Shown here: in pieces, positions 38,154 through 48,634 of the stretch | How positions within the stretch are numbered: the stretch's first letter is position 1 | Layout of the letters: the number at the start of each line of letters is the position of its first letter | From: Aulosira sp. ZfuVER01 | Lineage (GTDB): Bacteria; Cyanobacteriota; Cyanobacteriia; Cyanobacteriales; Nostocaceae | Assembly (NCBI GenBank): GCA_034530615.2 | Contig: JAVRCV020000022.1 | Span: 42,500-106,499 of the forward strand | DNA: 64,000 nucleotides | Direction of reading: 5' to 3' | Made by a program: the position numbers and the translations under genes | Notes under the pieces: model-generated | What the model saw: only the letters and a program-made list of their open reading frames with translations | Databases searched by the model: none | What the model was told of the DNA's origin: nothing

Positions 38154-38933
38154 CTAATTAATCCCCAGTAACTCTTTAGTAGCTGTAGCATTGCCAACCA
38201 TACGCGAATCGCTGAAAATTTGATTGAGAAATTCTTTGGTAGCATCAACAGCTAAAGCTCGTGCATTTGAAAATCCCTGTCGGCTATCATCGTCTTTATT
38301 TAATCCGGTGGGACAGAGAACTGGGACGCCATGACGGCATTTGCCTGTAGGAACACCACATAAACCTTGGCTGATGAGGAAATACCCAGAAGTCAATTGA
38401 TTTAAACCTGCACCGCCGAGTGTACTGGGATCTTGAGGACAAGTTGGTGTATTTTTATCGGCTCCGGAGAATTCTTCCCGTCCTAATTTAGTGTTAATGT
38501 TAGGGCTGCTATGTCCCATTTCTACCCAATTACTGTGAGCGTAAAAGTCTTGGAGAGTATGCAAGGCTCCGCCTAAATCTTTACGTGCTGAAGACGCTTC
38601 TGGATCTGAATCAATAACTTTAGTAATGCTTCTTTCTTTAAGGCGGATCAAGCGTTTACTACCACCCAGAAAATCTTCACCATCAAAATGCTTTTCTGTA
38701 TCAGCCTGGTTGACTGGTTGATCCGTATCTTTATTAGCATCAACAATTTGCTGGATAGCTCGCTGGGAAAATTGTAACTTCTCATTATTAATTACAGGTT
38801 GAGTAGCAGCCAGTGCCTCTCTTGTGATTGCTTCATGTATAGGAACCTTAAAAGCTAAGGCCGATTTAGGCATCCATAAAATTAGTGCTAATGTCAATAG
38901 CACCGCCATAGTAATTTTTTTCAAACTTTGCAT
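38154..38933 (-). CDS. Secreted HET-C/VWA7-N-like (Zn phospholipase C/nuclease P1-fold-like) protein
   Basis: Signal peptide ending ALA-F; H..IT, HFD, GGALHTLQDFYAHSNWVE, C.HG...GLNKD. Confidence 0.7.
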   Translation of the reverse strand: MQSLKKITMAVLLTLALILWMPKSALAFKVPIHEAITREALAATQPVINNEKLQFSQRAIQQIVDANKDTDQPVNQADTEKHFDGEDFLGGSKRLIRLKERSITKVIDSDPEASSARKDLGGALHTLQDFYAHSNWVEMGHSSPNINTKLGREEFSGADKNTPTCPQDPSTLGGAGLNQLTSGYFLISQGLCGVPTGKCRHGVPVLCPTGLNKDDDSRQGFSNARALAVDATKEFLNQIFSDSRMVGNATATKELLGIN

Positions 38934-38979
38934 ACCTGAATATCTCCAAAGTACAGGAAAAAAACCTTAGTGGGGAATG

Positions 38980-40701
38980 CTACTCGTAGCTAGAATCGTA
39001 ATGATAATCTGAAGCTAAAACCAGTCGCCAACTAGTATCTTGAGTGAGTTCTAGCGCGTATTGATGATAATTTAATAAGGTAGATCTGTGACCAACGCTG
39101 ATAAAAGTTGTTTCAGTTTGTCGCAATTGTTGGTAGAGATTTTCCTCATTCTGCAAATCTAAAGCACTAGTTGCTTCATCCAAAATAACGTAACGCGGAC
39201 GTGTCACTAATATGCGTGCAAAAGCGAGACGTTGTTGTTCTCCTAAAGACAATATATTTTCCCAATACACCTCTGCATCCAAACCACCAACTCTTGCAAG
39301 TAAGTTTTGCAGATTGACTTGTTCTAAAACTTGTTCGAGTTCCCGATCTGTAACAGCAAGATTTCTATTGGGATATAATAGTTGTTCTCGCAGAGTTCCC
39401 AAAATTAGATAGGGACTTTGGGGTAAAAACATCATTTCTGCTAAATTTGGTCGTACTAAATGACCTGTACCAGTGTTCCACAAACCGGCAATTAGTCGTA
39501 GCAGAGAACTTTTACCAGAGCCGCTAGAACCTACAATTAACAATCCACCAGGTTCAACTGATACTGATAAATCTTGAACTAAAACTCTCTCATAGTTAGG
39601 AGTTTGTAAAGTGACTTGTTCGAGGGAAATACGCTCTGCTTCTACTGTTTCAATAGTACTACCAGAAACTGTTGTATTTGCTGCTAAAGCATTTAAAAAA
39701 GTAGCGGCGCGATCTATCAAACTTGCCAGTGAACCGAAAGAGCCAAACTGAGAGATAATAACTGAAAACGCACCTGCGACTTGAGCGCAAGCTATAGTTG
39801 CTTGAGAAATTTCTCCTAGTTCTATTTGACCGACGAAATATAAAGGTGCTACCGTTAAAAACGGAACTATATAGAGAAAAGATTGATAACCATTGATAAA
39901 TAATTGAAGATTTCGCTGCCAATCTAGAATATTATTTGAGCTTTCAATCAGTTTAGTAAATCTTCTATTCAGAATACTTGATTCCTGAGCTTCTCCTCGG
40001 AAAAAAGCAATAGATTCAGTATTGTTGCGAACATGAGTTAAAGCATAGCGGTAATCAGCTTCTGCTTTAAATTTATCCGTATTCATATTACTCAGTTCGC
40101 GACCGAGGAAAATTGTTATAGCATTGCCTATAATGGCATAAATAATTAAAACAAATACTATTAGTTTGGAAATAGACCAAAGAATTCCAATAAAAGCCAT
40201 AATTACCAGAGTTTTTTCCAAAACAATGAACAAAAAATTTAGCAATCCGTTAGGAATTGGTTCAAGCTCCTGAGATATGCGTTGGTCTGGATTTTCAATT
40301 TCTGGCTGAAAGGTAATTTGATAGTAAGCTTGTCCACGAAAATATTTATCCAGGAGATATGTGTTTAGCCATTGATACCAATCGAGAGCTAGCTTTTTTC
40401 TTAAGTACTCAGAGAACACTATTAGTGGCGTAATTACCGCAAAAGTCCCAATGTAAAGAAATAATAGGCGAAAAAAGTTTGGTGCATCTTTTTGTTCCAA
40501 TACATCAAACAAGTCACGATTGATATAGCTGTTATATGCATTGAGGCTATTGTAAGATAGCAGTAATAACAGCAGTAAAGCTAACATAAACCATGACCAC
40601 AAAATTTGTGGAATCGTCCTGAATCTTTCTTCAGAGGGATACCAGTAAAGTTTAGCAATAGTCAAAAATTGATTCCACAAATGACTGTCAAATATATTCA
40701 T
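38980..40701 (-). CDS. ABC transporter permease/ATP-binding protein (ABCD/YddA-like)
   Basis: NPDQRI, ESIAFFRGE, GSSGSGKSS, LSLGEQQR, ILDEATS, SVGHR. Confidence 0.93.
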   Translation of the reverse strand: MNIFDSHLWNQFLTIAKLYWYPSEERFRTIPQILWSWFMLALLLLLLLSYNSLNAYNSYINRDLFDVLEQKDAPNFFRLLFLYIGTFAVITPLIVFSEYLRKKLALDWYQWLNTYLLDKYFRGQAYYQITFQPEIENPDQRISQELEPIPNGLLNFLFIVLEKTLVIMAFIGILWSISKLIVFVLIIYAIIGNAITIFLGRELSNMNTDKFKAEADYRYALTHVRNNTESIAFFRGEAQESSILNRRFTKLIESSNNILDWQRNLQLFINGYQSFLYIVPFLTVAPLYFVGQIELGEISQATIACAQVAGAFSVIISQFGSFGSLASLIDRAATFLNALAANTTVSGSTIETVEAERISLEQVTLQTPNYERVLVQDLSVSVEPGGLLIVGSSGSGKSSLLRLIAGLWNTGTGHLVRPNLAEMMFLPQSPYLILGTLREQLLYPNRNLAVTDRELEQVLEQVNLQNLLARVGGLDAEVYWENILSLGEQQRLAFARILVTRPRYVILDEATSALDLQNEENLYQQLRQTETTFISVGHRSTLLNYHQYALELTQDTSWRLVLASDYHYDSSYE

Positions 40702-40852
40702 TTTGGTTCTCTAGCTTCGACTATCTAAAATTTGAATCTTGGGCTAAGTTAAGTGTGGATATGTTTGCATATCAATGTAGACTGCCTACGATTTTCCTTG
40801 CACATAAATTATATTTTGGACTAATCTATGAAGTGGCAATCTTGTCAAACTC

Positions 40853-46936: not shown

Positions 46937-46949
46937 CCAGGAATACTTA

Positions 46950-47873
46950 ATGATGCTAAAACAAGCTATTTTAGAGTTTCATAAAAAAATCTCCAAAAGC
47001 GAGGAGATGCAACAGCAAATTAGGGCAATTACAACTTATCAAGAATTAATTAAGTTTGGTGAAAGGTACGGCTATTCCTTTACGAAGGAAGATATTAGAA
47101 ATGCGAGTAGTTCTATCAATGAGAATGAGCCAGAAGTTCCTGTAAGGCAAGCTGTTTCTAGTTCAAGTAAAATTTCTCAGCAGAAGTATCATCATGAATT
47201 CAAATGCTTAGATATTCCCGAATTAGCAAAAATTGCTCCAGAGTTTGATAAGTTAAAAATTAAGCCAAGTACGGTAGATATTAACCACTTTGACAGTTAT
47301 TTTAGAAAGGATGATTTTAACTTTCTTTCTCTCTCTCCGGCTGCACAAGAATTCAATTCTCGTCATCATGAGATTGTTACGTCAGAGAGTAGTTCCGCAG
47401 TTCTGGAACCTTATCCTGAATACACTAAACGTTCGTTTCACTTAATAAATTTGGATCTTCATGTCGATCACTTAGTTTATGAACAGTATTTTCTGACTAA
47501 ATTGAAAATAATTAAATATCTAGAAAATCTTTTTGAAACTGAAGTTAGATTTTCGGGCAGCTTATGGTATCCGCCTAATTCTTATAGATTATGGCATACC
47601 AATGAAACCCAGCCTGGTTGGAGAATGTATTGGATCGATTACGATGGTTTTGAGCAAGATACTCGCGATCGCCCATTTTTTCGCTATATGAATCCTGAGA
47701 CTAAGGAGTTGGTAACACTTGAGGAACAATCGAAGATAGTCAGGTTTTTTAGGGTCGAAAATGATGCCAATAAATTATTCTGGCATTGTATAGCTAACCC
47801 AACAAAATTTAATCGCTGGAGTTTCGGATTTGTTGTTTCTAACAATTGGATGGATAAATTATTTTGTGGCTGA
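46950..47873 (+). CDS. Nif11-like N-terminal domain fused to a putative cupin/2OG-Fe(II)-type oxygenase
   Basis: F..KI..SEEMQQQI...ELIKFG..YGYSFT.EDI Nif11-like pattern; YPP...WHTN...FWHC...R.SFG jelly-roll-like motifs. Confidence 0.6.
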   Translation: MMLKQAILEFHKKISKSEEMQQQIRAITTYQELIKFGERYGYSFTKEDIRNASSSINENEPEVPVRQAVSSSSKISQQKYHHEFKCLDIPELAKIAPEFDKLKIKPSTVDINHFDSYFRKDDFNFLSLSPAAQEFNSRHHEIVTSESSSAVLEPYPEYTKRSFHLINLDLHVDHLVYEQYFLTKLKIIKYLENLFETEVRFSGSLWYPPNSYRLWHTNETQPGWRMYWIDYDGFEQDTRDRPFFRYMNPETKELVTLEEQSKIVRFFRVENDANKLFWHCIANPTKFNRWSFGFVVSNNWMDKLFCG

Positions 47874-47914
47874 GAAAAACACAAGTAATAAATTGAAGAT
47901 AGAGGTAGATTGGC

Positions 47915-48634
47915 GTGAATAGCAATGTATTAGAGTCTTCTCCCATCGCTCCACGAAACTGGCAATCAGTATTAGAAGTATATCAAGCTTCTGCGCCATT
48001 CAATTATGCAGTGATGGATAATTTTCTCCATCCTGATATATGCCATAAACTTCATCAAGAACTGCTAAATCATTGGGGATGGAGCTATCAAGAGCATCTG
48101 GAACACCCTGTAATTAGTAATACAGCACCAGAAATTGAGACCATTTTTATGATTGCAGAATCGCTCAAAGCTCATTGTTCTTCTTTATTGTTAGGTTATG
48201 AATTAGTTGAACACTGGGCACTGATATATCCTAAAAACGCTCCAGGGAAAGTGCATTCTGATATTGGCGCTATTACTTTAAATATTTGGTTGACACCAGA
48301 GCAGTTCAACTTAGATTCTAGCAGTGGCGGCTTGATTTTTTTTGATGTCAAGCGGCAATCTGAAGCTACCTCGAATCAGTCTGTATCATATCTTTGGTCA
48401 GAGCAGTATTTGAAAGATTTTACCCAAGGACAAAAAGCTACTGTTAATTATAAATGGAATCGTGCATTACTATTTGACGCTAAAACTTTTCATCAAACTG
48501 ATACTTTTTGCTTTGCCAATTTGCAACCGGATTCTCACCGCATTAATCTTTCTTTAGCATTCGACAATCCTGAACTTTATGGCGATCGCATTGACTCGTT
48601 TAAAAAAATGTTGAAGACTTCTCAATCCAGTTAG
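47915..48634 (+). CDS. 2OG-Fe(II) oxygenase
   Basis: V.DNFL, HSD (HxD), GGL.F, NRALLF, FH, RINL. Confidence 0.8.
   Translation: MNSNVLESSPIAPRNWQSVLEVYQASAPFNYAVMDNFLHPDICHKLHQELLNHWGWSYQEHLEHPVISNTAPEIETIFMIAESLKAHCSSLLLGYELVEHWALIYPKNAPGKVHSDIGAITLNIWLTPEQFNLDSSSGGLIFFDVKRQSEATSNQSVSYLWSEQYLKDFTQGQKATVNYKWNRALLFDAKTFHQTDTFCFANLQPDSHRINLSLAFDNPELYGDRIDSFKKMLKTSQSS

Follow-up and report, generated by a model that had tools for sequence, protein, structure and literature searches.

What would a prenyltransferase of the cyanobactin family do beside a cinnamycin-type lanthipeptide cluster, and which residue would it modify? The question is raised by eight genes at positions 38154..48634 of a 64,000-nucleotide stretch from the nitrogen-fixing cyanobacterium Aulosira sp. 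ZfuVER01 (contig JAVRCV020000022.1, positions 42,500 to 106,499 of the forward strand), called the window here. An earlier reading of these letters, the original prediction, had proposed a prenylated and hydroxylated, duramycin-like lipid-binding peptide, a hybrid of two classes of ribosomally made peptides that are modified after translation (RiPPs). Sequence reading and profile scans confirmed the genes at the positions, strands and order described there, and all eight are real. We favour, with moderate confidence, a cinnamycin-type pathway that includes a lipidation module of its own. The prenyltransferase (PT) very probably acts on the lanthipeptide encoded beside it, and Tyr10 of the core is its probable acceptor.

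The labels given to the precursor, lanM and the LynF/TruF-type PT hold, as all three proteins exceed curated profile cut-offs. The precursor (43157..43438, + strand) reaches 98.8 bits with NF033431 (cut-off 35) and matches PF19398, and the class II lanthipeptide synthetase LanM (43691..46936, + strand) reaches 592 bits with TIGR03897 (cut-off 304). A family precursor is thus found with a LanM, as in cinnamycin/duramycin-type clusters. The precursor consists of a 74-residue leader and a 19-residue core, CQTSCTGGPYTIVCDGSTK. In it are Cys1, Thr3, Ser4, Cys5, Thr6, Tyr10, Thr11, Cys14, Asp15, Ser17, Thr18 and Lys19, and no Trp; Thr3, Tyr10 and Ser17, proposed earlier as acceptors, can be read directly. 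Cys1, Cys5 and Cys14 together with Ser/Thr4, Thr11 and Thr18 are, as far as sequence tells, the residues for three thioether rings. The PT lies on the opposite strand (40853..41737, 294 residues from the ATG, within a reading frame 40853-41746). It scores 275 bits with TIGR04445 (cut-off 140) and conserves E49, R63, K131, Y183 and Y286, which places it in the cyanobactin F-family (LynF/TruF/PatF).

Evidence for a link between PT and lanthipeptide comes from other genomes. Three overlapping surveys (401 genomes of the phylum, 389 of the family and 396 of the order) gave 25 loci including the window, after one weak match (G713) was dropped, and up to 20 kb around each was examined. Six loci without a CinX-like gene, none of them with a PT, were put aside as a separate subfamily, leaving 19 CinX-type loci. 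Three of these 19, namely the window, L037 and L029, carry the PT together with a small, internally duplicated membrane protein (41935..42477, - strand, in the window), which accompanies the PT in all three and is found in none of the other 22 loci. Tyr10 is present in all three PT-bearing loci and in none of the 20 cores from the 16 PT-less ones (Fisher p 0.001, a nominal value since related loci are not independent). The suggestion that Tyr10 could be an acceptor is strengthened by this pattern. Thr3 and Ser17 fared differently: Ser or Thr occupies position 3 in 15/20 and position 17 in 15/20 PT-less cores, so neither discriminates and both were discarded as marks of prenylation.

The synteny survey also supports the assignment of the PT to the cluster. 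L037 holds all eight genes in a different order, while L029 holds the PT, the membrane protein and the ABC exporter on a different LanM backbone. The LanM and CinX-like proteins of L029 group with those of PT-less loci (support 97 and 100) and its ABC exporter with that of the window (97), so that the pairing of PT with Tyr10 occurs on two backbones. The eight genes are also present in the named record L001 (Cyanomargarita calcarea), which is not a separate count. Whole-genome PT searches, one of them at E 1e-60 and apparently on the sample of one of the surveys, found a close PT in none of the 16 PT-less genomes; G065 has a copy of 37% identity elsewhere in its genome. All seven of the closest database precursors have Thr6 and Tyr10, and four of them can be linked, indirectly, to a PT homologue. 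The PT itself is under purifying selection, with dN/dS of 0.33 against L037 and 0.28 against L029.

Several observations weigh against prenylation of Tyr10. The PT-Tyr10 pairings observed directly amount to about two independent ones. L035, from the CinX-less subfamily, has Tyr at the position equivalent to 10 and no PT, and Scytonema sp. NUACC21 has its PT and CinX-like homologues on separate contigs. Among the seven genes compared, the PT has the highest dN/dS; the other six lie at 0.13-0.27. In an IQ-TREE analysis of 38 out of 112 sequences, the PT falls with AcyF (95) inside a group (100) to which cyanobactin-linked enzymes belong as well, and the monophyly of the cluster-linked PTs is unsupported (29). 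A relative in L088 (57% identical) adjoins a cyanobactin core with Trp and without Tyr. Finally, N65, F67, W133 and Q288 of the acceptor pocket are common to AcyF, a Trp N-prenyltransferase, and W133, I267 and Q288 replace His138, Trp271 and Tyr292, the named pocket residues of PagF/PirF (PMC12371840). Accordingly, the PT does not fall in the PagF/PirF clade of Tyr O-prenyltransferases, to which it is 37% identical, and it groups with AcyF. A dedicated clade of cluster-linked PTs, seen by FastTree (1.0, 17 sequences), was dropped as a claim given the IQ-TREE value.

These data suit an alternative to which we give a low probability, that PT and membrane protein travel together as a module with another substrate (a Trp peptide, or the Trp in the repeat of the membrane protein), or that the PT descends from an AcyF-type cyanobactin gene as a relic with weak activity. 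Besides the AcyF-like pocket and ancestry and the separate contigs of NUACC21, the genome encodes further RiPP precursors, one of which contains Trp and adjoins a second LanM on contig C17. Against it, the linkage survives both the rearranged gene order of L037 and the second backbone of L029, the PT is under purifying selection with its active-site residues conserved, and the Tyr10 pattern would have to be a coincidence.

A cyanobactin substrate encoded elsewhere, which the original prediction had named as the finding that would count against it, was not found in profile and tblastn searches of the genome (99.99% complete), in which our PT is the sole F-family enzyme. The A and G proteases and E precursor that usually mark a cyanobactin cluster are not near the PT. 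The original prediction had noted that the window contains no cyanobactin protease or heterocyclase genes, and this now extends to the whole genome, where no cyanobactin pathway was found: PatG_D and PatB models gave zero matches, and neither PatC nor E-like cyanobactin genes were found. When cyanobactin A, B, C, D, E and G proteins of other loci served as tblastn queries, only generic subtilases and one heterocyclase came back. The latter, on contig C16 and 45% identical to a D protein, comes without A/G proteases and was rejected as a sign of a cyanobactin pathway. As a control, PatG_D was matched in 4/5 other genomes; the one missed, G454, is the other genome with a Thr6 core, carries the same cluster and likewise lacks PatG_D.

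The best match of the PT in the Protein Data Bank (PDB) is SmiF (9VT8), which is 70% identical and corresponds exactly to residues 1-293 of protein P0002; its structure shows that a close relative of the window PT is under study. Gly220 of the window PT, mapped through a PagF-like relative, aligns with PirF Gly221 and PagF Phe222, a position that switches between C5 and C10 donors (PMC11048544). The gate is thus small, as for a geranyl donor; it is Gly in all three PTs seen beside a precursor and Met in SmiF. We consider geranylation of Tyr10 about an even bet. It would be feasible in a lanthionine-type ring, since PirF can, in vitro, geranylate a Tyr enclosed by a methyllanthionine ring (PMC12076493). 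The Tyr10 assignment itself rests on co-occurrence, because the gate is PirF-like but the acceptor pocket is AcyF-like. Ancestry would indicate Trp, of which the core has none, and context Tyr10. For MonF, too, the acceptor was poorly predicted by sequence distance (PMC11774001).

The same pocket makes it worth considering that the PT modifies the peptide at another site, such as the free N-terminus, Thr3/Ser17, hydroxy-Asp15 or Lys19, with Tyr10 as a recognition element or a mark of lineage. The acceptors of F-family enzymes do include Ser, Thr, Arg and His as well as termini (PMC12371840, PMC11774001), and the pocket is not of the Tyr O-type. We regard this as unlikely. Thr/Ser3 and Thr/Ser17 are equally common where no PT is present, Lys19 is replaced by Ala in one of the close precursors (P0081), and no core residue other than Tyr10 follows the presence of the PT.

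The second unusual feature of the cluster concerns the fourth ring. In duramycin and kyamicin, DurN links Lys19 to the dehydroalanine formed from Ser6 (10.1101/358382; PMC6974636). The window core has Thr6 instead, and durN (PF19375) was unmatched in the whole genome and in G454, with tblastn of the window genome negative too; the profile was matched in 4/4 control genomes. Across the survey, durN accompanies a Ser6 core in 16/16 loci, and the three loci that lack Ser6 (two Thr6, one Asn6) have no durN. The Asn6 locus, L120, has no durN in the 19.9 kb examined and no PT, and appears to be a separate loss of the lysinoalanine ring. The lysinoalanine ring is probably not made here and, given Thr6, the absent durN and Ala19 in one close precursor, the mature product would most likely be tricyclic. 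Since duramycin without its lysinoalanine link is inactive (10.1101/358382), binding of phosphatidylethanolamine cannot be assumed, and judging from these residues and genes we find it doubtful. The duramycin-like lipid-binding activity of the original prediction, which mentioned neither Thr6, nor the missing durN, nor the nifK element enclosing the cluster, therefore becomes questionable.

Lys19, Asp15 and CinX are retained in most Thr6 precursors, which would be understandable if a fourth ring were still made. It could be a methyl-lysinoalanine from dehydrobutyrine 6 (Dhb6) and Lys19, formed spontaneously, by the second oxygenase or with the help of some other protein, with phosphatidylethanolamine binding kept; enzyme-free lysinoalanine formation is possible in base (PMC9505594). 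We hold this to be very unlikely, as durN and Ser6 are lacking from exactly the same loci, P0081 has Ala19, and the second oxygenase is found in loci with DurN as well. The favoured, tricyclic product does not imply that prenylation requires ring loss, because L029 has both DurN and a PT. With Ser6, DurN, a CinX-like protein, the second oxygenase, the PT, the membrane protein and a SAM methyltransferase together, L029 is our best candidate for a prenylated four-ring peptide.

Motifs of the 2-oxoglutarate (2OG)-Fe(II) type were found in both putative oxygenases, in line with their earlier description. The CinX-like protein (46950..47873, + strand, 307 residues) has a Nif11 domain, and its predicted structure (pLDDT 89) matches 2OG oxygenases. 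H216-x-N218, H279 and R289-x-S291 are invariant in 40 homologues. It is 46% identical to an actinomycete homologue, and a CinX homologue has been described as a Nif11-family protein (PMC6165096). Taken together, these features predict that it is the beta-hydroxylase of Asp15; the core has this Asp, and the comparison was with CinX homologues. We also observed that His-x-Asn (window ~47598-47609) stands in 40/40 members of the family where 2OG oxygenases usually have His-x-Asp/Glu.

The second oxygenase (47915..48634, + strand, 239 residues) has a His-x-Asp...His motif (H114, D116, H193) in 48/48 homologues, 5 of which match PF13640 weakly. A profile search of the PDB was matchless, and the fold predicted from the single sequence had a pLDDT of 33.6. 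The gene is present in 14/19 CinX-type loci (one partial), with or without a PT and also in DurN-bearing loci. A role as Pro9 hydroxylase was considered and rejected, as the pattern is not clean across the 19 loci: the gene is absent from two Pro-less loci, L010 and L011, yet a third Pro-less locus, L009, has it, and Pro-bearing L117, L119 and L121 lack it.

From these data a pathway can be proposed. LanM would dehydrate Ser4, Thr11, Thr18 and probably Thr6 and close three thioether rings, and the CinX-like enzyme would hydroxylate Asp15, both steps being expected from the family. The lysinoalanine step would be skipped. The PT would then add an isoprenyl group, most likely geranyl, to Tyr10, as co-occurrence and the Gly gate suggest, probably independently of the leader, as in cyanobactin PTs. 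The leader would be cut off by a general peptidase, as in the family; in the ABC exporter (38980..40701, - strand, ABC_membrane_2/SbmA-like) a domain scan matched no peptidase domain. This exporter, whose grouping with those of the other two PT loci is supported at 97, and the small membrane protein would export the lipopeptide. The lipid tail may anchor the peptide in membranes, instead of or alongside head-group binding. The membrane protein resembles a PHROG holin weakly (E 0.064), which is a lead only. The eighth gene (38154..38933, - strand) encodes a protein with a hydrophobic N-terminus that had been called HET-C-like; it does give a weak Het-C match (21.8 bits), but is mainly a VWA7_N domain (101 bits). 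It is found in 10/19 CinX-type loci, with or without a PT, and a partial copy adjoins L029.

The cluster looks like a recent acquisition. Over 40-48 kb the G+C is 35-38%, compared with 42-47% in flanking bins, such a precursor was found in none of 14 congeners surveyed, and the eight genes are bracketed by a 136-nucleotide direct repeat (37933..38068 and 48678..48813, both +, 90% identical). A unique att site was ruled out: the repeat is a dispersed, low-copy family with partial copies on five other contigs, and an empty site was seen in 0/5 congeners. A plasmid search gave zero matches and a metagenome scan one distant match. Among sequencing runs, three that contain the sequence in full may be the origin of this DNA, four others contained short fragments of relatives only, none bridging PT and precursor, and two RNA runs contained 5% of the words searched. 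A promoter and terminator scan performed below chance.

The cluster also lies within a larger element that interrupts nifK. The 5' part of the gene (33240..34523, + strand, TIGR01286 positions 1-434) ends at the 8-nucleotide direct repeat GTTCTCTT (34516-34523), which marks the left end of the element. The same 8-mer is found at C56:41187, in the 3' part of the gene (G000:C56:41165-41443, TIGR01286 423-516), with an XisF-family recombinase beside it. The only full nifK of the genome is thus split by about 70.7 kb (29.5 kb of the window and 41.2 kb of C56, if the contigs join directly; we infer the C22-C56 join). A split gene, a direct repeat and an xis recombinase at one end are the marks of a nifK interruption element. 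From the nifK break with matching 8-mers and the recombinase, we consider the lanthipeptide cluster, a CRISPR-like array and injection-system genes to be its cargo; if so, the element of about 70 kb, cluster included, should be excised in heterocysts. No nif genes were seen in the stretches of L037 and L029 examined, so this setting is particular to the window genome. It is tempting to imagine that a Trp-prenyltransferase from cyanobactin pathways was recruited and retargeted to geranylate Tyr in a lanthionine ring, that lysinoalanine and DurN were then lost, with L029 as an intermediate, and that a lipid tail now replaces the cross-link for a non-phosphatidylethanolamine target in a cluster cut from the heterocyst chromosome. 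As a whole, this scenario is speculative and rather improbable.

Other features of the region deserve mention. nifD is also split (5' part 12456-13838, 3' end 32857-33015). The inserted element measures about 19 kb, a tyrosine recombinase (31334-32752) adjoins the 3' end of the gene, and two XisF-family recombinases are located at 85-1626 and 6468-8030. The CRISPR-like array (36920-37398) has seven repeats of about 37 nucleotides spaced by 71-76; no cas gene was recognised adjacent to it, and congeners have similar arrays. From 49349 to 64000 and on into the start of C56 there are contractile-injection-system-like genes (sheath, tube, VgrG-related, baseplate-like). A protein of 1856 residues there combines OmpA, peptidoglycan-binding and protein-arginine deiminase (334 bits) domains and is a candidate cargo. 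Also inside the nifK element, a second biosynthetic cluster (G000:C56:18973-27943) appears, from N-terminal sequences labelled by eye, to encode a fatty acyl-AMP ligase, a carrier protein, two desaturases, a methyltransferase, a monooxygenase and a hydrolase. As to the survey, the loci put aside (L033, L034, L035, L122, L125 and L126) form a second cyanobacterial cinnamycin-like subfamily, several with two tandem cores and none with a CinX or DurN homologue nearby.

If our reading is true, the locus is a natural case of a cyanobactin-family PT serving a lanthipeptide, for which the literature we found offers engineered settings only. It would provide a lipidating enzyme that has evolved to work on a tightly knotted scaffold, one in use as a probe for phosphatidylethanolamine and as a drug lead, and would test how acceptor choice shifts between Trp and Tyr in the F-family. 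Moreover, peptides that have or lack the fourth ring, and have or lack the tail, would form a natural series in which to ask what each modification contributes. Our literature search, which left most subscription journals uncovered, brought up no paper on SmiF or on F-family PTs in cinnamycin-type clusters.

Ancovenin is an actinomycete cinnamycin-type peptide reported without the lysinoalanine bridge, and it is not known to be prenylated. NctPC reportedly acts on a lanthipeptide. It has low similarity to cyanobactin PTs (PMC13290415), while the window PT is a 294-residue F-family member. The mpp cluster is also a cyanobacterial class II lanthipeptide system, in which the ABBA-type prenyltransferase MppC acts after cyclisation (PMC12715784). 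The proposal of a hybrid of two RiPP classes stands insofar as the PT belongs to the cluster, but its novelty was overstated, because MppC already prenylates a lanthipeptide. MppC differs from the window PT, since it has more than 340 residues, is leader-dependent, geranylates Trp at C5 and rejects Tyr (PMC12715784), whereas here we find 294 residues, a cinnamycin-type leader and a core without Trp. With SmiF, AcyF and PirF/PagF the window PT shares the family profile and conserved active-site residues; its gate is Gly as in PirF and not Met as in SmiF, and it has no cyanobactin cluster around it.

Known nifK elements, eight among 38 genomes, likewise have a split nifK, a short direct repeat and, at their far end, an oppositely oriented XisF-like serine recombinase (PMC4874684). 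The element described here differs in its cargo, which comprises a RiPP cluster and a second biosynthetic cluster besides a CRISPR array and injection-system genes, and the accessible part of that paper makes no mention of such cargo in nifK elements. Divamide A from Prochloron didemni, too, is a cinnamycin-type peptide of cyanobacterial origin that comes with an additional tailoring enzyme and an ABC exporter, but it keeps DivN and the lysinoalanine and is N-trimethylated; no prenyltransferase is described in the accessible text (PMC9505594). The actinomycete A-M-X-N clusters of cinnamycin, duramycin and kyamicin have the same 19-residue register, the residues of three thioether rings, Asp15, no dedicated protease and an oxygenase of similar size (302-327 residues against 307 here; PMC6974636). 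Unlike them, the window has Thr6, no durN, Tyr10, a second oxygenase, a PT and a membrane protein, and neither a regulator nor a phosphatidylethanolamine methyltransferase is among its eight genes. In summary, the cluster is predicted to work like a cinnamycin pathway that forgoes the lysinoalanine bridge and adds a lipidation module.

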